Assembly: GCA_002104945.1 (NCBI GenBank)
Contig: MCFH01000083.1
Span: 62,001-126,000 of the forward strand
Direction: 5' to 3'
DNA from: Piromyces finnis finn
Lineage: Eukaryota; Fungi; Neocallimastigomycota
DNA: 64,000 bases
The notes under the pieces: model-generated
The model's database searches: none
Told to the model about the DNA's origin: nothing
Seen by the model: only the letters and a program-made list of their open reading frames with translations
Part shown: positions 37,271 to 64,000 of the stretch, piece after piece
Layout of the letters: each line of letters opens with the position of its first letter
Numbering within the stretch: position 1 is the stretch's first letter
Made by a program: the position numbers and the translations under genes

Positions 37271-38426
37271 ATGACATATTCAGATATTCAAGAACTTTGT
37301 AAATATCGGGAATTCAAAGAAATATATACTGAAGAAAAATTGATTGAAGAGAATCTCCATATGAAGCGATATCAAATTTTACCTGTACGATATATGACAA
37401 ATGAAAATGAAATAGCTAAAAGATTTCTAATTTATCATTCGCCGGGTACTGGGAAATCATTTACAGCTCTATGGATTTTATTGAATTTCATTGATATTTA
37501 TAAAAAACCAAGTATTATATTGGTAAAAAGTAAAGAGGCCATTATGGAATTTAAACAGAGAGTCGCGTTATGGTACGCTTACACATACAATTATCGTCAA
37601 CCTCCAACCGGTATTACCAATTATCACCAATTTATAAAAAGATACATCGAATTTCATACCTACATTACTTTTTGTAAATCCGTTGAAACCATAAAAGATA
37701 TTTCGTTATATGAAAATAGGCTTTTAATCATTGACGAAATACACCATTTTCGAAATACAGTTGGTAATAAAATTATATATAATAAATTACTTAAATTTTT
37801 AAATAACATAAAAGATTCGAGAGTCTTATTTATGTCGGCTACTCCGATTTTCGATAATTATAATGAAATAACAAGTTTAGTAAAATTAATAAAACCTGAT
37901 TTTGATTTCAGTATTAAAATAACACCGAAAAAATTGGAAGAAATAATGAAAGGTCATGTATCGTATTATGGATTAAATCCACCGGACACATCAGTTAATT
38001 TTATAGGTTCTCATGTGCCAAGAATTGAACGCTTTAAAATATTTAAAGTTTCCATGAAAGGATTGCAACTTGAAAATTACAAAACGTTAGCTAGTGAATC
38101 AAAAAGTATATGCAACATTGGAATTAGTCATGTGAAAGCAACGCTTGGTATAATTGGTTTTAAAGAAGAGGATTCACACGATAATTATGATGAAAGTTCA
38201 TCTAACAATATTTCAGATAATAATAATGATGAAAATTCATCTAACAATATTTCAGATGATAATAATGATGAAAATATTTCTATTTCCATTTCAAATGATG
38301 ATGATAATGAAAATTTTTCTGAAAATATGTCAGATGATGAAAATAACGATAATGATTCTGACAATATTTTAAATGATGTTAATAACGATGATTCTAATAA
38401 TAATAATAATAATAATAATTCAGAAG

Positions 38427-38464
<38 letters not shown>

Positions 38465-38501
38465 TCAGAAGATAATAATAATAATAATAATAATTCAGAA
38501 G

Positions 38502-38545
<44 letters not shown>

Positions 38546-38552
38546 TCAGAAG

Positions 38553-38599
<47 letters not shown>

Positions 38600-40813
38600 T
38601 CAGAAGATAATAATAATAATAATAATTCAGATGATCGGTACATTTTAAAAAATGAAAATATTATTAATAGTAACAGTATTATTCAGAATATTATAAGAAA
38701 ACAATCAAAGAAACTTGAAAACTACTGCTGTAAATTACATGAATGCCTTAAAATCATTAATAGTGAAAATAGTCCGGATGGTCCTGTTTTTATTTACTGT
38801 AATATTATTGATGAAGTAGGTATTTATTATTTTGCTGCATTACTCTGTGAAATGGGCTATAAATACATTTATGATAAAAAATCAGCATTAAAATTCGGAC
38901 AAAAGTTATCTTTAAATGAAAATATTAACTATCCGGAATTAAAAGAAATGCGAATAAACAGAAACAAGAAAAAATGGAATTTTACCTTTGTTACCGGAGA
39001 TAAGAGACTATGCCCAAACGTTATGGAACGCTTAGGCATATTTAATGATACAAGTAATAGAAATGGTACAACTATTAAAGTACTTCTTGGAAGTGATATA
39101 TTATCGGAAAGTGTAGATATCATGAATATTCGCCAATTACACATATTGACACCGCACTGGAATTATGAAAAAATTAACCAAATTATCGGCCGAATTCGTA
39201 GAGTGGGATCTCATGACGCTTTACCACCACACCAAAGAAATGTTAATATTTATCTATACATGGCTTATAACAGTGATCATGAATGCGAATATGAAAATTC
39301 GATAAATTACAGCATTGATTATGTTAAGTATATTATTAGCGAAAAAAAGTATAATCAAGCTTTAATGTATAACAACGCCTTACAAAATGCTTCCATTGAG
39401 TCTTTAATATGTGATAATCAGTCAGAAATTAATTCTAATAATACCAACACCAACACTAACACCAACACCAACACCGATACCATAGACAATTTTCAATATT
39501 CCAAAAACTATCTACGTAAAACTCTACCGATATACCTTTCCATAGCATGCAATGAATTTAAAAGTGTATTCGATTCATCTACCTGCTGCTATATAAGTGT
39601 AAACGATTTCAGAAAAAGAGTACCCCTATTAAATACCTTTATAATGAATAAAATTATTGAAATAATTAAATCTAAAAATATTATTATTAATGAAAAAAAT
39701 TTAGAATATTCATGTGCCTTATTTTTCCTTGAATCTGTCCCAAATGTCCATTTTTGTAATAGCGCTAATGTAAGTATAAGCAACCCATCACTTAGTATGC
39801 TTACTCACTACAATCCTAACTACTCTGCATACACACCAAAAAAAATAGCGTCCAAAAAGCACAAAGATAAAACTATCGAATATAACCCTCAAAATGATAA
39901 CCAACTCAGTAAAGCTTTGTTAAATACCGAAAATTCTGAAATTGTAATGAAAATAAAAAATATGGAAGATCTTTTAAATAGTAAATTAATAAAAGAATTT
40001 TACGACAGTATATCTCAACTTACACACACAGAAATCCTCGACATTTTAAAATATAGTCTTAAAAACGATTTAAAGAATTTTAAACAATTATTAAGTCCTT
40101 ACTGGATGGAATATAAAGAATTATTTTATATTTTATATTTTTCGAGCATTAAAAATTCCTCTTATGCTAGTAACAAAAAACGTTCCATTAACGATTTTAG
40201 TAATATGATCATGTATAGCGATAGAAATTTTGAAAATTGGACTCTATTGAAGAATAAGGAATTGAAAAATTTATCCATTGTATTTCAGCGTCATTACAAT
40301 GAAAAAACATCTATACGCATTAATAATCGTCTAAAGTATGTTTATGTATTATGTAATGATTTCACCCTTCGTTATCGTGACTTGCGCAGTGACTTGAATC
40401 TTTATTCGAAAAAAGAAGATGATTCTAATAATCTTAGGAATATAAATCGTGGTAGAAATATTGATAATTTTTATGACAAAAAGGAATTGATAGAAAGGTT
40501 AGTATACTCGGTATGTTTTGACAATCTTGAAGATGAATTGCCTTTAATAGAAAACTATAAAAAAATATCTGTTTCGGACATTACCGATTTACTTGAAAAT
40601 AACACCAATGAAAACACTGATTTAATTGAATATATATTAAATGTTGTAACTAATGATAACATAAATGAATATTGTAGTAAAAGACCTTATCAAGCATTTT
40701 TATTATATACATTACTTTCTTCAATACCATGTTTAATTAAAACAACAAGGTATAATATTATTGATGTTTGGAAAAAGTATTTATTTACTTATAATTTAAT
40801 AGTTGTTTTATAA
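37271..40813 (+). CDS. NCLDV D6/D11-type SF2 helicase (VETF small subunit / NPH-I family) with a poly-Asn insertion
   Basis: FLIYHSPGTGKS (motif I), LIIDEIHHF (II), FMSATP (III), LGSDILSESVDIMNIRQLHILTPHWN (V), QIIGRIRRVGSHDALPPHQRNVNIY (VI plus the NCLDV-typical tail). Confidence 0.88.
38395..38635 (+). repeat. Higher-order microsatellite [(AAT)n-TCAGAAGAT] inside the helicase ORF
   Basis: Encodes (N)n-SED repeats, all in frame. Confidence 0.95.
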
Positions 40814-41214: not shown

Positions 41215-41216
41215 TG

Positions 41217-41437: not shown

Positions 41438-42277
41438 TTATAATCTTTCAGTACTACTACGAAGAGAATTAGACGAAATATTAATATCAACAAAATAAGC
41501 TTTGCAAGTAAAATTTACCATTGGTACCCCATTAATCATTCGTTCATTAACTAACACATAACAAACTTTAATAATAGGATAAATATTACCATGAATATAG
41601 CAAAAAGTGTCTTTGGAAAGAAGATCAGCAACTTCTTTTGAATAAACATCACCGCAATACACATTAGTTCCTATTTTGAACTTTTCTTTAATTGGATCCT
41701 TGAAATAACGGAAATTAATATATTCAGCATCTTTACTTTTATTAATTATCCCAGTGTACGTCCAATTTTGAGTGTAAGTTACCTTATTTTTAGTAAGTAA
41801 GTTTGAGATAGGTGAAGTCATATCCATATTCTTTATATAGTTTGAAATTAAATATTTTATTCTTTCATCAACTAATCGAACATGTTCAATAAATTTATTG
41901 GTTGAGGCAGTTTCATTGTTAGATATTTTATGGAAGAAATTGTCTTGAATATAGTTATTTTTATTAAGGTGATAATGTGACATTGGAATGGATAAAGCAG
42001 GTAAATCCGATAAAGATAAATCTGAGGTGTCATTTACAGCGCCGATAACCACATTACTACAGTTATTATAGCATTTAACAACAAATCTGTACATTTTATT
42101 ATTTTTAGGTAAGGGGACAACTTCTTTAAAATTTATGGTATTAACCATAGTTTGAAATACAATGTCTGAATAACATGACGCTAAAACCCTTTTGTAATAA
42201 TCCAAACGAGGATTACTCGATTCATTATTCGACTTAACTAATTTCGTAAGTTGTTCCGAAGATGTTGAATTATTCAT
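41438..42277 (-). CDS. Virus-region hypothetical protein, possibly an OB-fold ssDNA-binding protein
   Basis: 279-aa intronless beta-rich ORF. The C-terminal IYPIIKVCYVLV...VNFTCKAYFV is reminiscent of NCLDV/T7-type SSB strands (weak, by eye). Confidence 0.4.
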   Translation of the reverse strand: MNNSTSSEQLTKLVKSNNESSNPRLDYYKRVLASCYSDIVFQTMVNTINFKEVVPLPKNNKMYRFVVKCYNNCSNVVIGAVNDTSDLSLSDLPALSIPMSHYHLNKNNYIQDNFFHKISNNETASTNKFIEHVRLVDERIKYLISNYIKNMDMTSPISNLLTKNKVTYTQNWTYTGIINKSKDAEYINFRYFKDPIKEKFKIGTNVYCGDVYSKEVADLLSKDTFCYIHGNIYPIIKVCYVLVNERMINGVPMVNFTCKAYFVDINISSNSLRSSTERL

Positions 42278-42819: not shown

Positions 42820-43077
42820 TTAAATAATCTTTTTACAATTTAAACAATAATATACTAGCGTAGCTTCTTCGTCACTACGACGAATTTGTATACGTCTAAT
42901 ATCAATGTTGTTACTGTGACATCTTTTACAAAGTAACGAACTATTTGATATATTATTTATTTTATTTTCTAGTAATTCCAATTCTTGTTGCTCCTTTATT
43001 CTATCTTCCTTAAACAAAGAGGATTCTTCAAAAAATTTATCTAATGAATTAATTGATAAATCAGCCATTGCTATCAA
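42820..43077 (-). CDS. Stand-alone TFIIS/RPB9-type zinc-ribbon protein (viral transcript-cleavage factor-like)
   Basis: CKRC...QIRRSDEEATLVYYCLNC retains the four Cys and the acidic DE hairpin. Only ~82-85 aa, lacking the TFIIS N-terminal domains; the likely ATG is at 43068. Confidence 0.85.
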   Translation of the reverse strand: MIAMADLSINSLDKFFEESSLFKEDRIKEQQELELLENKINNISNSSLLCKRCHSNNIDIRRIQIRRSDEEATLVYYCLNCKKII

Positions 43078-43559: not shown

Positions 43560-45758
43560 ATGGATATCATTCAATTAATTAATAATTTATTAAGTAATAA
43601 CAAATGCCTATCTAATGAATATGAAATAATAATAAATAATAAAAAATTTTCATTTTTTGAAGGAATCAATATAATTGACTGTAATAAACTTTCCAAAGAT
43701 CAATATGCTGTTAAATGTAAAGATAATATAAAAGTTGACGCAAATTATTCATCATTTTTTTCTCTTTTTAACATATTGGAAAGAAAATCAAAAGAGAAAA
43801 TCTTCAAATATAATTTCGATTTAAAGGATACAACAAAAACAAGCTTTTATATTCCGGTCAATATTTCTATACATACTTTTAAAGAAGTGTATAATAAATT
43901 AATAAAATTAGATTTGCCGAATACTTGCCAATATGTCATTGGTTTTATTGGAGGATTACATTATTATCATTACTTTAATAATGATTGCTACACCGGATCA
44001 TATAATTATAATCAAAATTTAATTAAAATGGATAGGGTTAAAGATATTGAAGATTTAGATAATTATATAATTATAAGATGTTGTCATGATTGTATAAAAA
44101 TCACCCATGATAAAATTGTGTTTTCCGAAAGAGATACGTATGACAATATTATTTGTAGAATATTGCCATGTTTTAATTACACAAATGAACAAATACTAAT
44201 TAGATTTACACCTTGTGATGCTTCTTTTATCTATCCAATATCTATAAACTTTCAATTATTTGATCTAATGCTCTATGAAAATGGTTTTTATCCTTATATA
44301 TATGCCAATGAAAGCGATAGTTTAATAAAGTGCCAAGAAAAATTAGTGTATACAATGAATATTCTTAATAAATCCATTAACATGTTGCTTTACAACAAAT
44401 ACAAGCAATTTACAGAAACTATCCAATTTCAAGATTTAGAGTGGTATATGTACTCGGCTGTTAAAAAAGTGTTGAAATACCTATATTTATTTTATATTGA
44501 CTTCCATATACGTTATTATCAAAGAAATGAACCTTTCAGTACTCCAATTAAAATAAATTACAATAGATTATTTGGAAAATATTATACTAGATATTTTAAT
44601 AATAAAGATAAAGTATTGCCGGTGATTGCTGATAAGGATTACTGCGTCGAAAATAATATTCCGTATGTTCAATGGAATAGCAATTACTATAGAGCTCCGG
44701 AAAATTCGGGATATAAAATAATTCTTTCAACAAATAAAAAATATACAGATAATAACGGAATTCCTAAATGTGTTAAAGTCATAAGAAAGTATAAGGAAAA
44801 AAGGGAAGTTGTCTACTTTAACATAACCCATGAACTAAACGAACATTGTAAAGGCCAATTCCCTTCAAATTTATTTATATCCTATGGCTTTGAATTACTG
44901 CATTTATACCGTGTATATTTCGATATCCCGGAAATATCTAGTAAATTTACCACTTGTCCTAAATGCAACACCTACATTAGCATTCCAAGTCAAAAAGACT
45001 TGGTAAATACCATAAAAGACTTACTTCATCACAACCAATTAAAAATACTAAATAAAAATTACAGTTTCAATGATGTTAACATACTTTCTTTTTCTATTGA
45101 TAACGATATGAATGTATATCCGTATTGCGTTTTTAACCACGTTTACAGTTTTAATCCTTTCATTCCTTTTTTAATAGTTATATTAAACACTTCTAAATTA
45201 TATACATTTCCTAATTATCGATTTGAATTTGTGGTAGGCCCAAATGACAATTGGTTCAATTTTAATGATGATCTTGTACAGGCTATATTTTCTATGTATA
45301 AAAAAAACTCTATTTTAATTATGGATAGTACTAAATTAAATAAATGCATTAAGCAATACGTCTTAGATAATGACACTGCAACCACTACTATTTTAATAGC
45401 AGAAAAAGAATATCCAAATGAAAATTTTTATCTATGGAGATCTATTTATTCAGAAGTAATACCTAAGATACCAATAATAAAGGATGCCGAAGAATTTCAC
45501 AATACCCTGCCATCATTTTCATTTCTATGTAAAACGATTAAAAGTATATCTGCTTTTCATTACAATGCATTGGATGAAAATAATGAAAAATTCATGGTTT
45601 ATGGTGTATGGGAAAATGAAATTTATTACCCATGTAAAGCATCATTGGAGATAGTAAAACCGGATAGCATTAATAAACCTTACTTATTAATAAAAAGAAA
45701 TTTAGATGGAACTGTTTATTCATTTACTAAAGATAGTTCTAATTTTATAGTTTTTTAA
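43560..45758 (+). CDS. Putative early transcription factor large subunit (poxvirus A7L / VETF-L-like)
   Basis: 732 aa, intronless. YYTRY...LPVI...YYRAP...GIPKCVK is a degenerate version of the VETF-L Y.R.C...P.....YY.CP...PCC motif, followed by G.FP.NL; the neighbours are NCLDV transcription genes. Confidence 0.55.
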   Translation: MDIIQLINNLLSNNKCLSNEYEIIINNKKFSFFEGINIIDCNKLSKDQYAVKCKDNIKVDANYSSFFSLFNILERKSKEKIFKYNFDLKDTTKTSFYIPVNISIHTFKEVYNKLIKLDLPNTCQYVIGFIGGLHYYHYFNNDCYTGSYNYNQNLIKMDRVKDIEDLDNYIIIRCCHDCIKITHDKIVFSERDTYDNIICRILPCFNYTNEQILIRFTPCDASFIYPISINFQLFDLMLYENGFYPYIYANESDSLIKCQEKLVYTMNILNKSINMLLYNKYKQFTETIQFQDLEWYMYSAVKKVLKYLYLFYIDFHIRYYQRNEPFSTPIKINYNRLFGKYYTRYFNNKDKVLPVIADKDYCVENNIPYVQWNSNYYRAPENSGYKIILSTNKKYTDNNGIPKCVKVIRKYKEKREVVYFNITHELNEHCKGQFPSNLFISYGFELLHLYRVYFDIPEISSKFTTCPKCNTYISIPSQKDLVNTIKDLLHHNQLKILNKNYSFNDVNILSFSIDNDMNVYPYCVFNHVYSFNPFIPFLIVILNTSKLYTFPNYRFEFVVGPNDNWFNFNDDLVQAIFSMYKKNSILIMDSTKLNKCIKQYVLDNDTATTTILIAEKEYPNENFYLWRSIYSEVIPKIPIIKDAEEFHNTLPSFSFLCKTIKSISAFHYNALDENNEKFMVYGVWENEIYYPCKASLEIVKPDSINKPYLLIKRNLDGTVYSFTKDSSNFIVF

Positions 45759-46189: not shown

Positions 46190-47839
46190 ATGAATTTGGA
46201 AGACTTTCCTGATAATGATATCGATTATATTTGTAATGAAATACATAAAAAATTTGAAAGAAATAAAAGCTTAATAACATATATTAATCAAGTTAATGAT
46301 AAAGTTAGAACCTTTTTAAAGAAAAAACATAAATCAGAAAAAATAGATTGTGATAAGTTTGTTAAATATATTGTTGATAAAATTGAGTTTCGTATGATAA
46401 AAGAAAATGTTCATGTTGGCATTTTAGCAGCTCAGTCAATTGGTGAACCGGTTACACAATCAGCATTAAGTTACTTTCATAACTTAACTAGTAATAAAGA
46501 AAATATTAATGGATTGAAGGAACTGTACAATATAACCCATAATAAGTTGGATTTCAGCGTAGCTGAATTCTACTTCAAATCAAAAGATTATGATAGAGTA
46601 TTAAAGAAGACGGTAATGAGCAATATGGAATATAAGACTTTAAATGATGTAGTTTTAGATGTTGTATATGATGGTTTCATCCTTCGCTTTTATTTATGCC
46701 GCCATACTATATTTAATTTCAGATTTCATCCCCAAACTATTTTTGATGCTCTAAAAAAATATTTAAATGATACAAAAAATATATTGAATACATGGGAAGC
46801 ATCTATAAATTTTTCGGATCTTTATATTCAATTTTCTCAACCTTCTTCAAAGTTTCTTGACTGGTTGGATGATCATCAAATTAAATATTTAGTAGATGTA
46901 GATATGATATGTGTTTATAAACAAAATGAAAATGAAAATGAAAATGAAAATGAAAATGAAAATGAAAATGAAAATGAAAATGAAAATGAAAATGAAAATG
47001 AAAATGAAAATGAAAATGAAAATGAAAATGAAAATGAAAATGAAAATGAAAATGAAAATGAAAATGAAAATGAAAATGTTGATTATAATAATACACATAT
47101 TAGGGAAAACAATAATATAAACTATTTTGATATTAATGAACATAATATTGGAAATATTAAATTTATGTCAAATATTATAAAAAAAAGAAATTTTATTACT
47201 GATTATTTTGAAGACCATAAATTAAAATTCGAAGAAAATGATAAATATTATATACTTGATAGTGGCTATATTAATTTAAATAAAGATGATATAACAAAAA
47301 TATTAGATAATGTTGTATTATCAGGAACTAAAGGGGTTGTTAAAGTTGAAAAGAACTTTATTGGAGATGAATTATATTTAGAGGTTACAGGATTAAACTT
47401 AAATTCTCTCTTTAATAATAAATATCTTGATAAGAATCGCTCTAGATATATCGTATATGGTAATTCAATGGACATTAACTTTGAATTACGTAAACAAAAT
47501 ATTTTAATGCAATTACAAAGAATTGTGAATGTTGATTCTTCCTCAACCTATAATAACCAACATATATAATTATTAACTAATTTTATGTGTCGTGATAACA
47601 CAATTTTGCCAATGTCCCGTTTTGGAATGAAAAAAGGTAATTATTCTTTTATATCTCAATTATCTTTTGAAGATCCTTATAGCGTAATTCAAGATGTATT
47701 CTATGGTGTCAAAGATAATTTAACATCTATATCTTCAAAGTTGATTACAGGAATATATAATGATAATGAAGAAGAAAATACTGAAAATACTGAAAAAGAT
47801 AAAAAGAATGATAAGAACGAGAAGAATGAAAAAGATTAA
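46190..47839 (+). CDS. rpb1: RNA polymerase largest subunit, C-terminal half only (RPB1-C / archaeal A''-like split), with an EN-repeat insertion and one in-frame TAA at 47567-47569
   Basis: VGILAAQSIGEPVTQSALSYFH (trigger-loop region). After the stop, HI*LLTNFMCRDNTILPMSRFG...LSFED continues in frame, matching RPB1 RH.xLLxDxM...SFE. Confidence 0.85.
46925..47077 (+). repeat. (GAAAAT)n hexamer microsatellite, ~25 units, in frame in RPB1-C
   Basis: Directly visible; encodes (NE)n. Confidence 0.95.
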
Positions 47840-48190: not shown

Positions 48191-51100
48191 TTATAATAAA
48201 TCACTAATATTTGTATTTAAAACTTTTAATAAACTTTTGAATCCTGTTTCTACATAATGATAATAATAATATTGATAATCTAGTTTAGGCTTACTAATAT
48301 TTTTATTTTTAGTAGCCTTTTCACATATATTTTTGTACAAGTCTAAAGATATCATTTTGTCTCCTAATAATTTTGAATTCTCATTAAATGCAAATGAATT
48401 GGTATCTATAATTATATATTCAACTTTTTCACCAACTTTATAATCCAAGTTATACATTTTATGGTTATTAACAAAGAGTAAAACATAGTAAGACTTATTA
48501 ACGTACTTTGGTCCAATAGACAATTTCATAATCAACTTTTCTAATGGTACATCACCAGAAAGCAACTTATTTTTCATTTCTAGTACCTTATTACGTATCA
48601 GGTTTTCTGGATAATCAAAAAGTATCATATATAAAAATATTTTATAATAATCTCTAATGAAAATACAAGTATTCTTTTTAATAATATCTATCCCTTTGAT
48701 ATACAATTCCGATGTATTTGCCAAAACACCACAGTATTTCTTTTTGGAAATAATTAACATTCTTTTAAATGTGTTTTCATATTTTAGATGCATTCCTTCG
48801 GGTAATTGATCGGTAACATATTCTGCTACTAATTTACAGTCTTCAATAAATTTATTAATATTAAAATCTTTAGTATCATGATATTTTTCGCTACTTTTAT
48901 TTTCTACATCCTTCTTATATTCAATAAGACATGAATCTGTATCACCATAAATTACTCTAAATTTGGTATTTTCACAAATTAAGGCAATCGTTTTATTCAA
49001 GTAGTTTCTTCCCATTCCTGTGGTACATTCAGCACCTGGTAGGAATCTTAAATACTTTAAAGAACCCGAGCCAAGACACCCATAAATAGAATTAGCTTGT
49101 ATCTTTAATGCATATTGACGTTTATCATATATAATATAATCGGATCCAGATGCCTTTTTCATCATGTTTTTATAGCGAATTCTTTCTGAAAGAAGTAACT
49201 TCATCATTCGAGGTAAGATGCCAACATGACTTTTTGTAAAATAATACACTTTATTCCCTATATCAATTTTATGATACTCATCTTCCGCATACTTTCCAAT
49301 ATCACTGTTATGAATTAATGTTGTATAGCATATATTATGCGTAATGATGACACTTGGATATAAACTTGTAAAATCCAGCATAGTACAATAATTGTATACA
49401 CCGGATAATGGTTCAATAACAGTAGCACCTTTATAGCTAGATATATCAGAATTATCAATATCTATGCAAATATTATTATCATAGCAATATTTATATAATA
49501 AATTTGCAAATTTTTTACTCTGCCCGTTTTTATAAACTTCATCAACCCGGATTCTTGAAGTTTTGGCAATTTCTAAAAGTTGAATCCATTGATATGAAAT
49601 GTTAAATATTTCTAGAGTTAGGATGGAATCCATAATACAATACATTGCCACTTTATTTAAAGAATCATTGGTATTTTCGTAAATTAAATAAAACATGTCT
49701 TTGAAGGGTAAATCGATTTTATGCTTATTTAATAGTTGCTCAGAAACATAATTTAAACTAGCCGATGGCATATTTAAAGATTTTGCGTATTTGAAAATAT
49801 CAATTGTAATTCTACCTGGAATCTTAAGTTCAACTTCATTATTAGAAGTAGTCATGAATTTTGTTGGCATATTTAGAATTCTATTGGCCTTAAATGGTGA
49901 ATCCTTCTGATCAATAATCGAATACATACCAGCTCTTTGGGCTAAGTATTTATAATCGAATCCAAAAGTATTATAACCGATAATTAGGTCCGGATCCAAT
50001 TTCCGGATTTGATTAAAAAATTCACAAATTAAGTCATATTCTGATTCCACAAATATAATATCATATTTATCATTTAAAATATCACTTTTTAGAATTTTAT
50101 CCTTTTTAGATTTTTCGTGTTTCATAATAAATTCTTCTATTGGTTCTAATGAGCTTTCTTCCTCTTCCTCTTTCTTTGTAAAACTATTTAGAGAATTTTT
50201 AATCAACTTTTCATTTTTCAAACTATTATTTAGTATACTTTTTAGTCTATTAAATCTACTTTTAATATCACAATTATATGTGCAGTTATTATTATTTAAA
50301 AGCGCTTTTAGTCTATGATATCTTTTTTCCACCTCAATATCATTAGTTTTAATAATAACACTATTATTATTATTATCATTTTTATTATTTTTATTGTTGT
50401 TAATACTTGTAGTAGGGTTAGTAGAGGAAAAAGAAGATAAGGTTGTTGTAGTGTCATTAATAAAAAATGAATTATTTATATCCATACAAACTGATTTAGA
50501 TTTACTACAATTAATTGTATTATCAACAGTGCTAGTATGAATTGAATTATTATAATCATTTATAGTATTACTCATATTACTATTGATATTTAAACTATCC
50601 ACTTTTTGTTTTTCTTTTGCAATTACTGAATTGCACTTAACACCAACATCTAATTTATCTAATTCAATGGAACCTTGGTCATCTTTGTAACTTTTATTAA
50701 TATTATTAATATTATTAATATTATTGCTATTTTCATTTTCGATTTTTTTATCAAAAAATACAAAATTTTTGCACGAATTATTAAATTTATTGATATCAAT
50801 AAAAGATATAAATGAAGGACTAATTTCATTTAATTGTGACCGATTTACAATATTATTTTTGTCTTTGTACTTTACACAAATAGCAATATTTCTTTGAATG
50901 TCTTTATAATGATATACAATACTAACAGTTGATATATAGTCATTATATAAATAGCAATTTGGAAAAGATTCAAAATCATGAGACATGCATTCTATATCAA
51001 ACGACAATATAGAGGGTTCCGGATAATTGTCTATTTTTTTTTCATGAATATCTTTATAGCTGATGATATATTCCTTATTGAAAGTGGTATATTTTTCCAT

Positions 51101-53030: not shown

Positions 53031-53170
53031 TAATAAAAATCTTATAAAAATAATAAAAATCTTATAAAAATAATAAAAATCTTATAAAAATAATAAAAAT
53101 CTTATAAAAATAATAAAAATCTTATAAAAATAATAAAAATCTTATAAAAATAATAAAAATCTTATAAAAA
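53031..53170 (+). repeat. Perfect 20-bp tandem repeat x7 (TAATAAAAATCTTATAAAAA)
   Basis: Seven identical units read directly. Confidence 0.95.
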
Positions 53171-53638: not shown

Positions 53639-55426
53639 ATGGTATCCTTAAGTACAAAAGAAATAGAGACAGATGGTATTAATATATACCATCCAATTGT
53701 ATACTTTTTATTTATCTTGTTAAAACATGATGAAACCAAAAAATCAAAATCTTATACATTAATTGCTAACTACCTAAAAACATATAATGTACAAATTGAT
53801 AAAAAAGATGAAAAAGATACAATGACAAATATAGAAATTGGAATTCTTAATAACCGATTAAATAATATAAAGATTGAGGAAAACAATGCTTTGGAAAATA
53901 AAAAGTTCAAAAATGATATTATTGACATAATTTATAGTTGTATTGACGAATTTGGATTACGCATTGTAAATATTGCCCGATTAATGACTATAAAAAAATA
54001 TTACAGTAAAACAGTATTAACAAATCATTCCATATTCAATATATTTATTATTTTAAATTTGGGATATTTTGTATACAGTGATAAAGAATGGTATAAATTT
54101 TTCTATAGTCTTAATGGATGGGAATCGATTAGTTCTTACGATATAGCTAAAGAAATAAATTTATATTTAACCGGAAACCTTAAGAATATGTGCCTCGAAT
54201 ACAATATATCTTTGGATGGCATCACTAATGAATTAATGAATTTCTTTACCAATCATACCATAATCTACAATCATTTGGAACAACTTGAAACCTTCTTTTA
54301 TACATATGATTTTATTAAACGCATTGATAAAGGTAATGTATTAAGATTCGAAGATTATGTTTATGATTTTGGTATCAATGCTCCACGTCCTGGACGTCCT
54401 AATGACTTTTGTCTGAAATCAACCAATTACAATTACTACAATGATAACAAAGATAAAATAGAAGAAGTCTATCAATTTCTAAGAGAAATTTTCGTTGAGG
54501 ATGATTTAATAGAATATGTATTGAAAGTGATTGCTTCTACCCTTACTCTTGGTAATAAATTACGTTCCATTCTATTTTTCATTGGATCTGGTCGTAATGG
54601 TAAAACTACCTTTACCAATATGTTGCGACTTGCACTTGGAGATTATGCTGCCACTCCAAACGTATCTTTATTTTTAGGAAAGTCTACAAGCGCCGATAAA
54701 CCTAGTCCTCATATGATGGATCTTAATAACTGCAGAATTTCGATATGTGAAGAACCAGATGCACGATCTATCAATATCACCGGTGATGCTAAAGCCATTA
54801 CAGGAAATGTCGGGTATATTAAGACTAGATCTTTGTATAAGGATTTGCAAACCGTTTATGTTGATTTGTTACCGATTATCAATACCAATGATAAATTAAC
54901 TATATCCAATTTGGACAATGCTTTAATTGACAGAATCTTGGTAATTCCTTTCACTCAACGTTTTGTGAACAAGATGAATATTTCAATATTATCCTCCACT
55001 CAAAACATTAACAATACCTCCATCAAGCATGCCAATACAATGTGGCAAGGTTCCCATGTTCAAAGTTATGCTGAAGCATTAATGCACATCTTGATTCAAA
55101 ATTATCAAAAGGACTATACGAATCTGGAGATCCCTCAAAGTGTAATTCATGCCACAAAGCATTTCATTATGAGATGTGATCATATCGCTCGATTCTTAGA
55201 AAAGTATATTATTGATAAAAATGACACTTTTGCCATTCCTATCGATGAACTTTATTCCTTATATAAAAATTGGTTTAAGCAATATGTTTCAACTAGAGCT
55301 ATTAATTACAGTTTGGAAGATTTTCGTATGGATTTAATTAAATACAATATAAGAATAAACAATGTAATGACAACTGATACCAACCGTTCAATTGAATCTA
55401 TTATTGGTTATCGAATATTAAATTAA
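53639..55426 (+). CDS. D5-like SF3 helicase (D5_N + helicase), N-terminal AEP primase not evident
   Basis: D5_N-like YDF..NAPRPGRPNDF..ST; Walker A GSGRNGKTT; Walker B CEEPD; K.ITG...TRSLY; motif C INTND; RILVIPF..RF. An in-frame stop lies just upstream of the first ATG. Confidence 0.92.
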   Translation: MVSLSTKEIETDGINIYHPIVYFLFILLKHDETKKSKSYTLIANYLKTYNVQIDKKDEKDTMTNIEIGILNNRLNNIKIEENNALENKKFKNDIIDIIYSCIDEFGLRIVNIARLMTIKKYYSKTVLTNHSIFNIFIILNLGYFVYSDKEWYKFFYSLNGWESISSYDIAKEINLYLTGNLKNMCLEYNISLDGITNELMNFFTNHTIIYNHLEQLETFFYTYDFIKRIDKGNVLRFEDYVYDFGINAPRPGRPNDFCLKSTNYNYYNDNKDKIEEVYQFLREIFVEDDLIEYVLKVIASTLTLGNKLRSILFFIGSGRNGKTTFTNMLRLALGDYAATPNVSLFLGKSTSADKPSPHMMDLNNCRISICEEPDARSINITGDAKAITGNVGYIKTRSLYKDLQTVYVDLLPIINTNDKLTISNLDNALIDRILVIPFTQRFVNKMNISILSSTQNINNTSIKHANTMWQGSHVQSYAEALMHILIQNYQKDYTNLEIPQSVIHATKHFIMRCDHIARFLEKYIIDKNDTFAIPIDELYSLYKNWFKQYVSTRAINYSLEDFRMDLIKYNIRINNVMTTDTNRSIESIIGYRILN

Positions 55427-55630: not shown

Positions 55631-58600
55631 TGTAAAGATATCAAACGCCTCTGTTTGATATCTTTAATGTAACTTAAGCCACAAGTATTATTGTTTAAGT
55701 TACACAAATTATATTCAGAAAAAGAAAATGAGACATAATTTATTTATTAATAATTAAAGTTTAAAACAAAATAAATTATTAATTTATTTTTAATGTTTAA
55801 CAAGTAAATTAATATTCTCAATTTAAATCCCTAGTTTTAGTATTGTTTTTTTTATAGAAATAGATAAATAATAAATGATTAATATATCAATAATACATGG
55901 GCACATATTCAAATTAAATAGTACTTAATTTGAATTGCCAATTGTATTTTACTAAAAATAGTTATAGTTTAAATATTTATTAATAATTAAGATTTTAGTG
56001 TAGATTTTAAATAATAATATATAAGAAATAAATAGTTATAATATAATATAAATGTATTTAGGAAAAATATAAATAGAAGATATTTTTCATCATTTTATCG
56101 ATGTAATTGTTATTATTAAAATTCTATTATAATAAAAGATATTTTATAAAACAATTTTTTATTTTATTTTTTCAAAATCTTGTGTTATTGTAATAGAATA
56201 GATATCCTAATCTATTCTTTCTGTGTCGCCATTACAATAACAATTACCTAACGAAAACCAAGAATACGTTAGGGTATCTACCGCCGAGTAAAAGAAGAAA
56301 AAGAAGGAATAACTACTGGGTTGAAATTGAGTCTACCGCCGAGTAAAAGAAGAAAAAAGAAGGAATAACTACTGGGTTGAAATTGAATCTACCGCCGCCG
56401 AGTGGGAAGAAAGGACCAAGAATAACCATTAAGGATTGATTAGTAGTACAAAACTTGTTCGACACTGCTTTTTGCAGAACGCGTCTGAATAACTTTTGTA
56501 TTGTTAGATATACTAAAATTATCTTTTATAAATAATTAAAAAAAAAAAAAAAAAAAAAAAAATTACTTACTTGAAATAGTAGTAAGAAAACATTTTATTT
56601 ATTTTAGTAAGTTGGAGGGTTTAATTAGTGAATTTGAAAATTTGAATTTGGAAATGGGTGATAGGAATGTGGGTGTTTCCGGGAACTCGGGGAACATTAT
56701 TAATGCTCCACCGATATTCTCTGGTAAACAACGTGAATTAGATGGATTTTTAACTAGAGTGGAGTTGGTATTTCGTACTCGACCGACACTGTACAATACA
56801 GATCGAGTCAAGGTCGACTTCGTTATATCATACTTCTCTGGTAAACCTTTGGAATGGGCTTCAGTGTTGATGAAGAATAATAGTGGGGTTTTAAACCATT
56901 ATGATGAATTTGTAGATAGGTTGAAGGCTAATTTTGGCAGTTATAGATACGATACCGTTGTAGCTAACGGAAAATTAGATAATCTTCGCCAAAGGAAACT
57001 TGGTCAGGTATTAGATTACATTACCGAGTTTCAACGTATTAGCCAAAATTCAAGCTTTAATGATAGCGCAAAAATCTACATGTTTCTGAAAGGTTTATTA
57101 CCACCACTTAGGGAGAAGTTGGCTTTCATTGAATCAAACCCAACTTCAATTGAACAATTGATTTCTTCAACTATTTTAGTTGAAGATATGATGAAAAGGA
57201 ATTCTTTAAGTGAATTTTATTTTAATGGTAGAAGGGCTAATGATCCTATGGATGTGGATGTATTTAAAATTAGTAGAGAGAATAAACGAAAAAGGTATGT
57301 GAATATTCAAGGATCAAGTAAAAATTACAATGAAAACATAGATAACTTTGAAGAAGAAAAGAAAAAAGGGTTATGTTTTCTTTGTAAACAACCGGGACAT
57401 TTAAAATTTAATTGTCCTAATAGAGTAAAGCCCAGAAAAGTGTTAAGAATTGTTAAAGAAAGGACTCCAAAAATTGTTAATCCAAAAATTTACAAAGTTG
57501 GAGTTAAGGGAGTGAAAAGTGATTTAAACCTTGTGGACTTTTACTTGAGTACCAATGAAGTTTCGGAAGTTAAAATTAAGGTTTTAATTGATTCCGGTTC
57601 TGAATTAAATTTCATTAATCCAAGTCTTGCTGAAGAACTTGGTATTAATTTGGAAAAAGTGGAACCATTCCGTGTTTCAGGTGTTAGTGATGGAGTTGTT
57701 AGTGTTTGGGAAAGGACTGAGAAGTGCATGCTCCGTTGCAAAAATCACTTCGAAGTAATTCAACTTTATGGATTACAAGTCCCCGGTGTTGATGTTATTC
57801 TTGGTTTGCCGTGGATAAAGAAGCATAATCCAAATGCTTTCTACGACTCTAAGAAAATCGCTTTTAGTTCTGGTTATTGTGCCAGACATTGTAATAAAGG
57901 CAAAAGAAAGAGAAAACCAAGAAAGAAGTCAAAGAATGATCAGTTAGATCATGATGTTCTCGACCGAAGCTTGACCAAAAAGCCGAAAGTAGATCCCTCT
58001 GTCCCAAAAAATGAAGAAAAAGAATATGTTAAAGGCCGCCTTGTTAGAACCATCAATGATGAAGATGATAGCGATGATGAATATATTAGTTTTAATAAAA
58101 AAGTTAAATGTATTGTAACAAAAATTAATGAAACATGTAATAATGATAACGAATCATGTAGTAATAATAATAATAATGGAAAAGATATTAATAAAGATAA
58201 ATTGGTCGCCGTACCAACCCAATATTTAGAATTTAGTGAAGTATTTAATGAAAAAAATTGTGAAGTGTTACCTCCTCATAGACCTTATGATTGTGAAATC
58301 AAACTTAAAGATGATTCGACTTTATTTTATGGACCTTTGTATCCATTAACTGAAGTTGAAAGAGAGGAACTTAAAAAATATATTGATGATAATTTAAATA
58401 AAGGTTTTATTAGGAAATCATCGTCTCCTGCTGGTGCCCCAATTTTATTTGTTAAAAAGAAGGATGGCTCCCTAAGACTTTGTATCGATTATAGAAAGTT
58501 GAATGATATTACCATTCGTAATTCATATCCTTTACCTTTAATTAGTGACCTTTTGGATAGGGTGAAAAATGCTAAGATTTTTACTAAATTAGACCTTAAA

Positions 58601-61600
58601 TCCGCTTATAATCTTGTTCGTATTAAAGAAGGTGACGAATACAAAACGGCTTTTCGTACTAGATATGGACATTTTGAATATCTGGTTATGCCTTTTGGAT
58701 TAAAGAATGCACCTGCAACTTTTCAACACTTCATTAACGATGTCCTTAGTGACTATTTAGACGATTTTGTTATCTCATATATTGATGATATTCTTATTTA
58801 TTCTAATAATATCGAAGAACATCATGAGCATGTTAAAAAGGTACTTAAGAAACTACTTGAAAATAATCTTTATGTTAAATTAGAAAAATGTGAGTTTGAT
58901 GTTGAGAAAACCACTTTTCTTGGTTATGTCATTTCAAAGGATGGATTGCAAATGGATGAAAATAAAGTTAAAGCAATTCTCGATTGGCCGGTTCCCAAGA
59001 ATGTTAAAGAGGTTCAGTCTTTTATTGGTTTATGCAACTATTACAGAATTTTTATTAAAGACTTTGCTAAAATTGCAAACCCTCTTCACAAACTCACTAG
59101 AAAGAATGTTGCTTTTAACTGGGTGAAAGAAGATCAGGACGCTTTTATTTTATTAAAATCTCTGTTCACGTCAGCTCCTATTCTGAAACATGCGGATAGT
59201 AATAAACAATTTATTGTAGAAACTGATGCTAGTAATTATGCTGTCGGTGCTATTCTCTCTCAAGAATTTGATGGCAAATTACATCCTATTGCATTTCTTT
59301 CTAAAAGTTTGACGAGTTGTCAAAGAAACTATCCTATATATGACAAGGAACTTTTAGCTATTGTAGTTGCTCTTGAAGAATGGCGTCATTATTTAGAAGG
59401 TGCACGCCATCCGTTCATAATTTATACTGATCACAAGAATTTAACATTTCCTAGAAAACCTGAAATGTTATCTCAGAGACAAATTAGATGGAATTTGTTC
59501 TTATCCAGATTTGATTTTAAACTCATTTATAGAGCTGGAAAGAAATCCGGTAAGCCTGATATCCTGTCTCGTAGAAGTGATCATGTAGAGAATAATATTA
59601 ATTCTGATGTTTCTTGTCTTACTATTTCGTTTCATCATAGCGATAACAAACCGTTAATCGATTCTATTTTATTAGAACTTAAAAATGACGATTTGTATAA
59701 TTCTATTGTCCAATTTAAAATGAATGGTTCTGCATGTAATGCACCTATTAAAAATATTGATAAAGTTATTATTGATAACGAGGGATTTTTGTTATATAAT
59801 AATCTTATTTATGTTCCTAAATCTCTTAGGACAAGAGTTTTGGAACTTCATCATGATTCTGTTGCTGCTGGTCATTTCGATATTAAGAAAACCACTGAAC
59901 TGATTTCCAGAAACTTTTGGTGGCCAAGGTTTCATTCAGACGTTAAATCTTTTATCAAATCTTGCGTGACTTGTTGCAAATCCAAAGTCCCCAGACATAA
60001 GCCTTATGGATTGTTATCCCCTTTGGACACTCCCAGTAGGCCCTGGTCTGATATTTCTATTGATTTTATTGTTGATCTTCCTAAGTCCAGAGATATGACA
60101 ACTCTCATGGTTGTTGTCGATAGATTTACTAAATTTGCTCACGCCATTCCTTTACGTTGTCTTCCTACTGCTTCGATTGCTGCTGATGCTTTTATTGCTA
60201 ATGTCTTCCGTTTGCATGGTCTTCCTGATTCCATCATTTCTGATAGAGGCTCGCAATTTACTTCTGACTTTTGGTCAAGACTTTGTGACCTTCTTAATAT
60301 CAATCATTCATTATCAACTGCCAACCATCCGCAGACAGATGGTCAAACGGAGAGGGTGAACGGCATATTAGAACAATATTTCCGTTGTTTTATAAATAAA
60401 AAGCAGAATAACTGGGTTGATCTTATCCCATTTGCTGAATTTGCATATAATAATACTTTACAACAATCTATAAATCAATCTCCATTCTTTGCTAATTATG
60501 GTTTTCATCCAAAGTTCAGCTTAGAAATTCCAGCTAATGATAGACCTAGTAGAGCTGAACAAAGAGTAATTGATATGAATGAAAACTTTAAATTATTAAA
60601 AGAAAACTTAGAAAAAGCAAAAGAAACATATAAGAAATATGCCGATATGAAGAGAATGATTCCCCCGGAGTTCGAAGTGGGAAAGAAGGTATGGTTATTG
60701 AAAGATTCTCCTGGAACTAACCTAAAGAGAAAATTAGCACCTCAAATGCTTGGCCCATTTGAGATAATTGGAAAAGTTAGTTCTCTCGCTTTCAAATTGA
60801 AACTTCCAAAGACAATGAGATGTCATCCAGTCTTTCATGTTTCATTGTTAGAACCATACTTTGAAAACAAGTTTAACGACAGGTCTAATCGTAGGAAGAG
60901 GAACATTCACCTTAACACAGATTTAATTGAAAAAATTCCAGAGAAAATTGAAAAGATGAAATCTGTTAATGGTGAAACATTTTATAAGTTATCATGGAAA
61001 GGATTTGACAAATCCACTTGGATTTCTGAAGATCAGATTCCAGATAAACAATTAATACAAGAGTTTGAAAGAAACTCTAAAAAGTCAAAATATAAGTCGA
61101 ACGACTCCTCCATGAAAATTAGAAAGAATAAAGTTGGTAATCTAATCAAGCACAGATACCAACCATTTGTAATTGAAATTCCTTCGAGTAAAGATTCCTT
61201 ATAAATTAATCTCGCAGGAGCTCGACTTAGAGAGAGAGATTGTAAAGATATCAAACGCCTCTGTTTGATATCTTTAATGTAACTTAAGCCACAAGTATTA
61301 TTGTTTAAGTTACACAAATTATATTCAGAAAAAGAAAATGAGACATAATTTATTTATTAATAATTAAAGTTTAAAACAAAATAAATTATTAATTTATTTT
61401 TAATGTTTAACAAGTAAATTAATATTCTCAATTTAAATCCCTAGTTTTAGTATTGTTTTTTTTATAGAAATAGATAAATAATAAATGATTAATATATCAA
61501 TAATACATGGGCACATATTCAAATTAAATAGTACTTAATTTGAATTGCCAATTGTATTTTACTAAAAATAGTTATAGTTTAAATATTTATTAATAATTAA

Positions 61601-61846
61601 GATTTTAGTGTAGATTTTAAATAATAATATATAAGAAATAAATAGTTATAATATAATATAAATGTATTTAGGAAAAATATAAATAGAAGATATTTTTCAT
61701 CATTTTATCGATGTAATTGTTATTATTAAAATTCTATTATAATAAAAGATATTTTATAAAACAATTTTTTATTTTATTTTTTCAAAATCTTGTGTTATTG
61801 TAATAGAATAGATATCCTAATCTATTCTTTCTGTGTCGCCATTACA
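55631..61846 (+). mobile_element. Complete family A Ty3/Gypsy chromovirus, copy 2, inserted inside the viral block
   Basis: LTRs at 55631-56236 and 61241-61846 appear identical by eye; TSD TATAT (55626-55630 and 61847-61851); PBS ATAACAATTAC at 56237-56247; intact gag-pol. Confidence 0.97.
56612..61204 (+). CDS. Gag-Pol polyprotein of family A copy 2 (1530 aa; DDE intact; GHFG->GHFD in the IN zinc-finger region)
   Basis: Nearly identical to 2231-6823; DISIDFI retained; GAT at 59879-59881 replaces GGT. Confidence 0.97.
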   Translation: MEGLISEFENLNLEMGDRNVGVSGNSGNIINAPPIFSGKQRELDGFLTRVELVFRTRPTLYNTDRVKVDFVISYFSGKPLEWASVLMKNNSGVLNHYDEFVDRLKANFGSYRYDTVVANGKLDNLRQRKLGQVLDYITEFQRISQNSSFNDSAKIYMFLKGLLPPLREKLAFIESNPTSIEQLISSTILVEDMMKRNSLSEFYFNGRRANDPMDVDVFKISRENKRKRYVNIQGSSKNYNENIDNFEEEKKKGLCFLCKQPGHLKFNCPNRVKPRKVLRIVKERTPKIVNPKIYKVGVKGVKSDLNLVDFYLSTNEVSEVKIKVLIDSGSELNFINPSLAEELGINLEKVEPFRVSGVSDGVVSVWERTEKCMLRCKNHFEVIQLYGLQVPGVDVILGLPWIKKHNPNAFYDSKKIAFSSGYCARHCNKGKRKRKPRKKSKNDQLDHDVLDRSLTKKPKVDPSVPKNEEKEYVKGRLVRTINDEDDSDDEYISFNKKVKCIVTKINETCNNDNESCSNNNNNGKDINKDKLVAVPTQYLEFSEVFNEKNCEVLPPHRPYDCEIKLKDDSTLFYGPLYPLTEVEREELKKYIDDNLNKGFIRKSSSPAGAPILFVKKKDGSLRLCIDYRKLNDITIRNSYPLPLISDLLDRVKNAKIFTKLDLKSAYNLVRIKEGDEYKTAFRTRYGHFEYLVMPFGLKNAPATFQHFINDVLSDYLDDFVISYIDDILIYSNNIEEHHEHVKKVLKKLLENNLYVKLEKCEFDVEKTTFLGYVISKDGLQMDENKVKAILDWPVPKNVKEVQSFIGLCNYYRIFIKDFAKIANPLHKLTRKNVAFNWVKEDQDAFILLKSLFTSAPILKHADSNKQFIVETDASNYAVGAILSQEFDGKLHPIAFLSKSLTSCQRNYPIYDKELLAIVVALEEWRHYLEGARHPFIIYTDHKNLTFPRKPEMLSQRQIRWNLFLSRFDFKLIYRAGKKSGKPDILSRRSDHVENNINSDVSCLTISFHHSDNKPLIDSILLELKNDDLYNSIVQFKMNGSACNAPIKNIDKVIIDNEGFLLYNNLIYVPKSLRTRVLELHHDSVAAGHFDIKKTTELISRNFWWPRFHSDVKSFIKSCVTCCKSKVPRHKPYGLLSPLDTPSRPWSDISIDFIVDLPKSRDMTTLMVVVDRFTKFAHAIPLRCLPTASIAADAFIANVFRLHGLPDSIISDRGSQFTSDFWSRLCDLLNINHSLSTANHPQTDGQTERVNGILEQYFRCFINKKQNNWVDLIPFAEFAYNNTLQQSINQSPFFANYGFHPKFSLEIPANDRPSRAEQRVIDMNENFKLLKENLEKAKETYKKYADMKRMIPPEFEVGKKVWLLKDSPGTNLKRKLAPQMLGPFEIIGKVSSLAFKLKLPKTMRCHPVFHVSLLEPYFENKFNDRSNRRKRNIHLNTDLIEKIPEKIEKMKSVNGETFYKLSWKGFDKSTWISEDQIPDKQLIQEFERNSKKSKYKSNDSSMKIRKNKVGNLIKHRYQPFVIEIPSSKDSL

Positions 61847-62170
61847 TATATATGTATTTAATAAAAATATTATTAATCATATTATTAATAAAAATAAAAA
61901 TAAATATTGTATATTGTACATATAGGAATAAATTTTACTTTATAGTTTTATTTAATTTTTTCATTGATAAATTTATAAATATATACTCATTTGTCAATGG
62001 TTTTTATTATGATATTAAGCAATCTTTTTATAAATCTATTATTATATAAAATAAGAAAATATTTTAAATTGTATTTTTTTAAAAAATCAATTAAATTATT
62101 TTTTTTTTTTAAAAAAAAAAAAAAACAACTGATATTAAGTTGTAAAATTTATAGATATTATTCATAGATA

Positions 62171-64000
62171 TTATTCATACATAGTTGTTTGTATACCAAT
62201 AGAATTTAAATATGAATTCATGATATTAAAACTATTTGATATTGTTAGAGATTTTGTTGCAGAATTACAGCATGTTTCTGATGTACTTATTGAATGACAA
62301 ATATTACAATATTTAATTTCCATAATATCTGTATTATTTCGAAACATATCTTTTAATATTGCATTGACTCCGTGTGCTACTAATGCATCTTTTTCCATTT
62401 CTCCTATTCTCAATCCACCATTATTAGCTTTTCCTTCGGTTGGTTGTTTGCTAATAGAATTAACATTTCCGGTAATTCGATAAAACATTTTTTCTTCCAC
62501 TTGATGTTGTAAAGCTGTATAGTAGCATACGCCTACAAACGCAGATCCTATATTCATTCCTGTTTTGGCATCAATCATTTTTTCCATGATCGGTATTCCA
62601 CTTTCAATAAATGTTGATCTGAAATTTTTTATATCATTACTTTCTATGGAAGCATCAAAAAATGTTCCAAATTTCTGAGGATCAATCACCATACACTTAC
62701 CGACGTACATTTCGATTAAATGGCCAACTGTCATTCTGGATGGAAAGGCATGTGGATTAACAATGATATCTGGTATTATTCCATGTTCCGTTTTAGGTAA
62801 TACATCCTCTGGTAATATTGATCCAATGACTCCCTTTTGAGCATAGCGACTAGCAAACTTATCTCCTTGCTGTGGTTTATATATATGCTGTACTTCCACA
62901 CAACAATAACAAATATCATCTTTAATAAAGGTAGTACAGCGATCAACAATAACCGGCTTTCTAAAAATATTTTCTATATCTGAAACTTCGTTTTTAATAA
63001 AATTGTATTTTCTAAATAATGGTTCATTACTACTGTATACATTTTGTGCAATCGGTGTATTTGGTTTTGGCAATCCATTTTCATAATTTTCATTTATATT
63101 CAATAAAATTTCTTCCTTAGTATTGTAGGAAATATATTGGTATCTATATTTAATATTACTAAATAAGCCATTTTCTATACTTTTAGCATTGAATATGACA
63201 CTATCTTCTTGATTATTTCCAAATGCCATAATAGCTACCACCACATTCTGACCACTAAATCTATGATAAGTATTATTATTTGTTATTGCTGATGATGTTG
63301 TCGTTGAGTTATTATTACTGTTATTTTCATCTTTTTCAATGTTTATATTTGTAAGAAGGTCAATTCGGCTTCTAAATTCGTCGTTATTTAATTTTATATT
63401 TTTTTTCAATTTAATATGACTATTTTTGTTAGTGTCATCTGAATAAGAATTGTTTTCATTTATCATTTCAAATCCGTTTTCATCATTTTCATCATCAATA
63501 TTTATAAATAGATTAAATAGATTATTCGAATTATTATTGGGATTGTTTAATAAAATGCTTAAGGGATGATAATGACATACTCTACGTGATAAAATAGATT
63601 CTAATTTGGTCATACAAAATGGACGTTGGGCATTAATTAATCTTCTTGAGTTATCATTAAATTGAAATATTGTACTATCATTCGACATACACTGTTTCGT
63701 CATACCGGCTTGAAATGTTAGTCTTGGAACATGATTGTTTCCTGGAAATGGTGAAAGTGCACTGATTAGACCAAACACAAAATTTGGATTTATTTCTTCA
63801 TATTTATATTCAGTATTACATTTGTATTCAGAAATATCAATAAATCTTACGCCTATTTCAATTCCATCTTTTAAAACTTTTATTGGCCTCATAATTCTTC
63901 CTTCATCCGTAAATAGATAGAACGCTGTATTATCAAATAGACAACTAATAAATGGATAAGTTAATTTCAATTCTTTGTAGGTATGTTCGACAAAGTCAAT
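62171..64000 (-). CDS. rpb2: Viral-type RNA polymerase second-largest subunit (RPB2), C-terminal part; ORF is open to the window edge
   Basis: GDKFASRYAQKG, PDIIVNPHAFPSRMTVGHLIE, LQHQVEEK, QPTEGKANNGGLRIGEMEKDALVAHG. It is far more diverged than a fungal RPB2, intronless, and has an Asn-rich insertion. Confidence 0.93.
   Translation of the reverse strand: MDFVEHTYKELKLTYPFISCLFDNTAFYLFTDEGRIMRPIKVLKDGIEIGVRFIDISEYKCNTEYKYEEINPNFVFGLISALSPFPGNNHVPRLTFQAGMTKQCMSNDSTIFQFNDNSRRLINAQRPFCMTKLESILSRRVCHYHPLSILLNNPNNNSNNLFNLFINIDDENDENGFEMINENNSYSDDTNKNSHIKLKKNIKLNNDEFRSRIDLLTNINIEKDENNSNNNSTTTSSAITNNNTYHRFSGQNVVVAIMAFGNNQEDSVIFNAKSIENGLFSNIKYRYQYISYNTKEEILLNINENYENGLPKPNTPIAQNVYSSNEPLFRKYNFIKNEVSDIENIFRKPVIVDRCTTFIKDDICYCCVEVQHIYKPQQGDKFASRYAQKGVIGSILPEDVLPKTEHGIIPDIIVNPHAFPSRMTVGHLIEMYVGKCMVIDPQKFGTFFDASIESNDIKNFRSTFIESGIPIMEKMIDAKTGMNIGSAFVGVCYYTALQHQVEEKMFYRITGNVNSISKQPTEGKANNGGLRIGEMEKDALVAHGVNAILKDMFRNNTDIMEIKYCNICHSISTSETCCNSATKSLTISNSFNIMNSYLNSIGIQTTMYE

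Follow-up and report, generated by a model that had tools for sequence, protein, structure and literature searches.

The DNA analysed here is a stretch of 64,000 nucleotides of the anaerobic fungus Piromyces finnis (assembly GCA_002104945.1, contig MCFH01000083.1, positions 62,001 to 126,000; hereafter the window), which is very AT-rich overall. On its left side are Ty3 elements, an ABC transporter and large open reading frames (ORFs) of host type. From ∼35049 there follows a block of intronless-looking ORFs, among them a helicase, a TFIIS-type zinc ribbon protein, the C-terminal part of RPB1, a family B DNA polymerase (PolB), a D5-like helicase and RPB2. Because this gene set matches that of the published fundsalphavirus, a Pithovirus-related endogenous lineage of anaerobic fungi (Gong, Zhang and Han, 2020; PMC7017919), the element at this locus is already known. 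It is visible over only ∼23 kb before running off the right end of the window, and 10 of the 11 element ORFs seen are open; repeat counts and the left host–virus junction are those of the assembly.

The leftmost element gene in the window is probably a 282-aa ORF with a CCCH-type zinc finger (35049..35897, minus strand; zf-TRM13_CCCH, E = 0.005, below the curated cutoff), a boundary that we regard as tentative. A short GC-richer stretch (36470–36620) separates it from the helicase gene; neither there nor elsewhere in the window were tRNA or Rfam matches obtained. The helicase, of the NPH-I/D11-like superfamily 2 type, is an open frame of 1180 aa (37271..40813, plus strand), and in the PDB it matches vaccinia NPH-I alone (3.4e-22) at a threshold of E ≤ 1e-8. 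It contains a 160-aa segment that is 53% Asn (38156..38635) and an NT-repeat site of 26 aa (39410..39487), which measures 8–70 aa in homologs. To its right lie a 279-aa ORF of no family (41438..42277, minus), an 82-aa TFIIS-type zinc ribbon gene (42820..43068, minus; PF01096, E = 6.7e-10) and a 732-aa ORF, again of no family (43560..45758, plus). The zinc ribbon gene is missing from the gene list of an earlier, unaided inspection of the sequence, which we call the original prediction. In P0098, a Neocallimastix gene model, RPB1-C is joined to sequence that by eye resembles the 732-aa ORF, and the genes thus seem to be ordered alike in Neocallimastix.

RPB1-C itself, the separately encoded C-terminal part of RPB1 (46190..47839, plus), carries a perfect array of hexamers in its variable jaw-region segment (46923..47078) and, further downstream, a premature TAA (47567..47569). 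PolB (48191..51481, minus; 1096 aa) has motifs Exo I–III and the polymerase motifs, with an Asn-rich insert between ExoI and ExoII (50066..50746). Upstream of it is a 146-aa ORF (51553..51993, minus); in gene models P0014 and P0017, PolB is joined to sequence that by eye resembles this ORF. A 194-aa ORF of no family (52401..52985, plus) is followed by an open D5-like helicase of superfamily 3, in the primase-helicase family (53639..55426, plus; TIGR01613, E = 3.3e-38), by a Ty3/gypsy long terminal repeat (LTR) retrotransposon (55631..61846, plus) and by the 3′ part of RPB2 (62171..64000, minus), which is open up to the window end and contains an Asn-rich insert of ∼95 aa, 31% Asn (63269..63553).

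Apart from one skipped segment, the PolB of this locus is identical to a protein named from P. finnis. In a FastTree analysis of 32 sequences, which drew long-branch and composition warnings outside the anaerobic-fungal clade, it falls with support of 100 into a clade of 15 sequences that includes named P. finnis, Neocallimastix and Anaeromyces proteins. The tree held no named Pithovirus; in a structural search of BFVD with the PolB model, the top match was the polymerase of Pithovirus LCPAC104 (3.7e-53, 20% identity), with other nucleocytoplasmic large DNA virus (NCLDV) polymerases close behind. The flanking genes described for fundsalphavirus are present (D5, the D6/D11-like helicase, RPB2 and the split RPB1, RP1c), and the published RPB5, RP1n and S-adenosylmethionine (SAM) methyltransferase genes lie outside the visible part. 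No capsid family was matched among the window ORFs, which cover ∼23 kb of the element, and neither an integrase nor a terminal repeat was seen in the window. The accessible text of the published account agrees with this locus in its hosts (P. finnis, Neocallimastix and Anaeromyces), in its gene set (PolB, D5, D6/D11-like helicase, RPB2 and a separate RP1c), in nearby retrotransposons, and in the stops within some copies (PMC7017919). It counts 6 copies of the polymerase in P. finnis and 26 in N. californiae, reports frameshifts as well as stops in some of them, and treats the copies as fossils; Asn-rich inserts, selection on the copies and a unit-length free form are not mentioned in that text.

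The original prediction drew attention to five repeats or inserts in the viral enzymes, held that all were built from units of 3 or 6 nucleotides, and took their intact frames as a sign that the genes had long been kept translatable in the host. All five are where it placed them. The helicase, NT and EN arrays are indeed built from such units, but the PolB and RPB2 inserts are low-complexity sequence rather than microsatellites: perfect repeats in PolB reach 15 nt at most, and in RPB2 all fall short of 12 nt. We account for the inserts by two layers, an old one and a young one.

The old layer is most evident in PolB. Across the anaerobic-fungal clade, leaving aside two N-terminally cut sequences of the 15, ExoI and ExoII are 204–380 aa apart in all 13 complete members, and the intervening sequence is 14–25% Asn. 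Outside the clade the spacing is 78–92 aa in 13 of 14 viral-type relatives, 143 aa in the remaining one, and 80 aa in three of three Pol delta sequences. The insert is thus a property of the lineage and not a product of this integration, since it is common to the whole clade and lacking in relatives outside it; its sequence varies from copy to copy. After YGDTDS, many PolB relatives carry a further Asn-rich insert, which is nearly missing from this copy. The nearest relatives outside the clade (P0187–P0202) are compact viral-type polymerases of 811–931 aa on metagenomic contigs. In an AlphaFold model built from 76 sequences (predicted local distance difference test, pLDDT, of 79, with the core mostly above 90), the insert is placed between two strands of the exonuclease domain. 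Residues 236–381 and 394–439 score below 50, and the insert is predicted to be largely unstructured; such low values partly reflect a lack of alignable sequence. An earlier model from 20 close homologs reached a pLDDT of 44 and was not used. In archaeal Rpo2, 29 residues separate the two blocks that flank the RPB2 insert here.

It could be argued that the proteins are not actually enlarged, part of the inserts being spliced out as introns, and the public gene model P0001 does skip 369 nt of the PolB insert (∼50408–50773), from GT to AG. The skipped segment is, however, a multiple of three without stops, and both metagenomic homologs and L001, a single 3,449-bp locus found in Joint Genome Institute (JGI) metagenomes, retain the insert within one open frame. 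No joint at 50408–50773 appeared among the run matches, in which the RNA-like runs had nil coverage there. We consider splicing a very improbable explanation. Other named PolB homologs may be shortened by similar GT–AG intron calls.

The young layer consists of the pure arrays. In RPB1-C, a perfect 156-nt array of 26 hexamers (46923–47078) encodes (EN)25. Eighteen homologs were found and 14 aligned; the site is 45–94 aa long and 22–38% Asn in 13 of the 14, is reduced to 8 aa in P0082, and contains a perfect 1–2-aa repeat longer than 4 aa in none. It falls between residues 1148 and 1267 of yeast Rpb1, which we take to be the jaw. In the helicase, the insert at 38156–38635 consists of six (AAT)6–15 runs with a 9-nt SED spacer between them, and about five degenerate 39-nt units, previously unremarked, come before these runs; an NT run lies at ∼39440–39482. 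In all 14 aligned helicase homologs (of 20 found), the main insert site is occupied by 14–51 aa, as against 160 aa here. Short NEN and NT seeds are present at the array sites in the closest relatives. From these comparisons, the pure (EN)25 and poly-Asn arrays alone appear to be private to this copy.

All 10 perfect repeats of at least 12 nt in the viral ORFs have 3- or 6-nt units, compared with 3 of 28 between them (Fisher p = 6e-7). In-frame repeats are by themselves ordinary, since repeats in coding sequence almost always come in multiples of three, and the host-type ORFs show the same pattern (6 of 6 with 3- or 6-nt units) together with the Asn-rich style that the original prediction had recognized in them. 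Beside the 194-aa ORF, just downstream, is a perfect intergenic tandem array with a 20-nt unit (53024–53173), and local repeat growth is therefore not confined to multiples of three. The absence of frameshifts was borne out, as none was seen in the viral ORFs (for RPB2, in the 3′ part that lies in the window). The DNA in which they persist was described as homopolymer-rich, which does not hold for the genes: A/T runs of at least 10 number 0 in the ORFs and 13 between genes, and runs of at least 7 number 13 in the ORFs against 25 expected from codon shuffles. We regard the in-frame pattern as weak evidence of recent selection, because the host-type ORFs share it, because slippage of codon repeats would by itself add whole codons, and because so young a copy may escape frameshifts by chance.

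That this copy was not kept translatable, contrary to what had been supposed, is indicated by RPB1-C. Beyond the in-frame TAA at 47567–47569 the frame stays open for 89 codons; over 63 of these the identity to the C-terminus of P0082 is 89%. The stop column holds E or D in 13 of the 14 aligned homologs; 11 of the 14 reach the conserved end, and three gene models are themselves cut in that region. The stop is probably not an assembly error, since a short-read contig from DNA run X1 matches 47090–47597 without difference, stop included; only 28 letters of this contig lie beyond the TAA, and X1 may have been sequenced from the source sample. The part lost corresponds approximately to residues 1370–1431 of yeast Rpb1, in the conserved C-terminus. 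As we take this part to include switch 1, the truncated product is likely inactive.

The retrotransposon between D5 and RPB2 is a very recent insertion. Its LTRs are identical over 608 bases and it is flanked by a 5-bp target duplication; it is 97% identical to a copy near 1260–7460, and both, nearly full in length, contain open 1516-aa ORFs. A further Ty3/gypsy 3′ fragment lies at 10363–12015, and the family looks currently active. Together, the single RPB1-C stop and a Ty3 with identical LTRs mark what is likely a young copy that is starting to decay, and for this copy the original prediction is not supported. As a measure of neutral change, a single stop among 13,263 coding sites amounts to ∼0.13% (0.003–0.74%), an age at which, under assumed indel ratios, the chance of finding no frameshift is 0.07–0.41. 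Depletion of CpG was tried as a sign of chromosomal age and rejected: observed/expected values over whole coding sequences were 0.91 for viral and 0.64 for host-type genes, but those at codon 3|1 junctions were 0.74 and 0.75 (p = 0.23).

Between the PolB of this locus and that of L001, a rough Nei–Gojobori (NG86) estimate of dN/dS is 0.19 outside the insert (852 codons, dS 1.16) and 0.57 inside. Compared with run X1, PolB shows 27 synonymous and 5 non-synonymous differences (32 among the 40 of 130 that were listed), where 20% of sites are synonymous, and paralogs of the 194-aa ORF show five and one. By these comparisons the family is under purifying selection. Relative synonymous codon usage (RSCU) in the element genes tracks that of host-type genes (r = 0.93) and that of L001 (r = 0.94). 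Two of the checks suggested at the outset, dN/dS among homologs and codon usage, came out in favour of constraint on the family and of a long adaptation of the lineage to AT-rich hosts.

Selection of this kind could act on a replicating form. For the nearest relatives of PolB, RPB1-C and the helicase from outside P. finnis, the longest Logan contigs measure 42,285, 42,391, 42,473 and 42,490 bp. Related proteins lie on such contigs from many sequencing runs (P0031–P0033, P0082, P0100 and P0120): PolB variants that differ by 1–3 residues occur on 17, 7 and 5 contigs, P0082 is identical on 47, and P0120 on 27. For two further variants the longest contigs are shorter (28,339 and 36,808), and in run X1, by contrast, the longest contig is 17,945 bp at roughly 280-fold depth. 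The shared upper size of 42.3–42.5 kb suggests a unit-length molecule, and thus that the closest relatives exist as a free replicon of ∼42 kb; the visible 23 kb of the present element and the missing published genes could together be compatible with that size. The 42-kb relative falls in a supported group with three copies named from P. finnis. Its PolB has the Asn-rich insert (266 aa spacing), and it is without the EN and poly-Asn arrays. Free relatives that already carried the same inserts had been named as evidence for a recent integration, a case that is half borne out: the probable free relatives have an Asn-rich insert at the same PolB site but lack the EN and poly-Asn arrays. Neocallimastix copies are often on contigs of 37–65 kb, and some are on megabase contigs.

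From these data we consider it likely that the locus is one of several chromosomal fundsalphavirus copies, whose Asn-rich inserts occupy sites variable throughout the family, and that this copy is young, starting to decay and not domesticated. Comparison among its descendants shows that the ancestor of the clade already had the Asn-rich ExoI–ExoII segment and variable segments in the RPB1 jaw and the helicase. Both the length and the sequence of these segments change over time, whereas purifying selection continues to hold the cores. The likely background is that an element rich in AT has long replicated in hosts that are AT-rich too, and that loops tolerate the inserts. Where short codon repeats were already present, slippage would later have inserted codons as whole units and so produced the (EN)25 and poly-Asn arrays, with the frame kept in the absence of selection. 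Selection likely acts on replicating members of the family, probably the ∼42-kb unit-length molecule in the closest relatives, which would repeatedly leave copies in host chromosomes. Of the long co-evolution or domestication originally proposed, co-evolution is therefore supported for the lineage, as seen in the clade-wide insert, codon usage and purifying selection, and domestication is not supported.

Several observations weigh against this account. Every viral ORF in the window other than RPB1-C is open, and at the upper age limit of 0.74% the chance of zero frameshifts falls to ≤0.006 under the same assumed indel ratios. The 39-nt units of the helicase are only 77–94% alike, too diverged for a neutral age of 0.13%; part of that private insert is therefore probably older and was carried while the gene was selected, as the original prediction proposed. 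The free form is deduced solely from contig sizes, the differences from X1 derive from collapsed contigs and not from phased copies, the host–virus junction is that of the assembly alone, and the order of repeat growth, integration and stop cannot be read from one copy. In IMG/VR there were no close relatives of PolB, RPB2 or P0100, and only distant ones of RPB1-C and, among the matches listed, of the helicase (23–50% in the best segment); the GTDB contigs held no close relative. A plasmid search returned one archaeal PolB only, at 27%.

The open frames could instead mean that the chromosomal copies are themselves the selected and transmitted form, a population of latent proviruses that complement each other, so that the intact genes of this copy remain useful despite a dead RPB1-C. 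The 10 open ORFs of 11, the mostly synonymous differences among related copies in X1, and the dozens of near-identical Neocallimastix copies, some on megabase contigs, speak for such a population, although the synonymous excess is equally expected from independently integrating strains and the window showed neither integrase nor terminal repeat. Contigs from two putative-RNA runs match the 194-aa ORF at a depth of 38–60 and pieces of PolB at 2–6, as transcribed proviruses might; no record lists either run as RNA, both may contain DNA, and the matches fall short of proof of transcription. On balance we think latent proviruses unlikely. Retention of the genes by the host for its own use, with a drift to poly-Asn under host selection, would account for the host-like codon usage and the Asn-rich style shared with host-type ORFs. 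We consider it extremely improbable, as the many divergent copies per genome and the premature stop in RPB1-C argue against it; further, the relative on 42-kb contigs branches among copies named from P. finnis, and the published co-speciation tests, made at the level of the phylum, favour multiple integrations in the accessible account (PMC7017919).

Some features of the host part of the window are recorded here in their own right. At 26417–33064 (plus) two host-type ORFs of 1537 and 631 aa, neither with a Pfam hit, lie in the same frame and are split by a single TAG at 31028–31030; the gene may be broken, an intron may lie there, or the assembly may be wrong. Near 34040–34090, another host-type ORF (33662–34380, plus), hydrophobic at its ends, is split into two overlapping frames. 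A 39-nt tandem array at 14478–14736 and a pair of direct repeats of 151 nt, 99% alike and 4.3 kb apart (13983–14133 and 18256–18406), probably belong to another mobile element.

Integrated Nucleocytoviricota with latent and active states are known from early-diverging fungi as Mycodnaviridae (Myers et al., 2026; PMC13533422). As far as the accessible text goes, these have up to 350 kb, were found via the major capsid protein and are related to Imitervirales and Algavirales, and that text contains no occurrence of Neocallimasti-, Piromyces or Pithovir-; they are a different group from the present element. For Dikarya, Wang and Harrison (2021; PMC8113271) link how common homopeptides and homocodons are to AT/GC bias and to intrinsic disorder, a relation that the accessible text describes for host proteomes, whereas the present case is a viral element; a further report (PMC7482067) concerns, in the part accessible, RNA viruses. 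On the free form or the Asn-rich inserts, nothing beyond Gong et al. (2020) was found in the literature searched, most subscription journals being outside its scope.

The element at this locus also bears comparison with the small, AT-rich cytoplasmic elements of yeasts. Such elements, for example pGKL2, have their own PolB, an RNA polymerase and an NPH-I-like helicase, and copies of them occur in chromosomes; their polymerase is protein-primed and they are smaller than 15 kb. The present element instead combines a D5 helicase with a PolB of the Pol delta/NCLDV type.

Relative to the literature searched, the new points are that a whole clade has core enzymes enlarged by Asn-rich segments, and that its members show purifying selection and an apparent, recurrent 42-kb molecule. 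We propose, tentatively and at somewhat less than even odds, that the fundsalphaviruses of anaerobic gut fungi are more than fossils, namely a living, very small NCLDV-derived replicon of ∼42 kb, possibly capsid-less, which retains a DNA polymerase, a split RNA polymerase and a transcription helicase of its own, has acquired the Asn-rich protein style of its hosts and continues to seed host chromosomes; the present locus would be a recent seed, with its microsatellites grown since. If this is true, cultured rumen fungi would carry an active DNA virus or plasmid from the Pithovirus side of the giant viruses, at a fraction of the usual genome size, and such a molecule might, speculatively, be used as the backbone of vectors for these fungi, which are difficult to manipulate.

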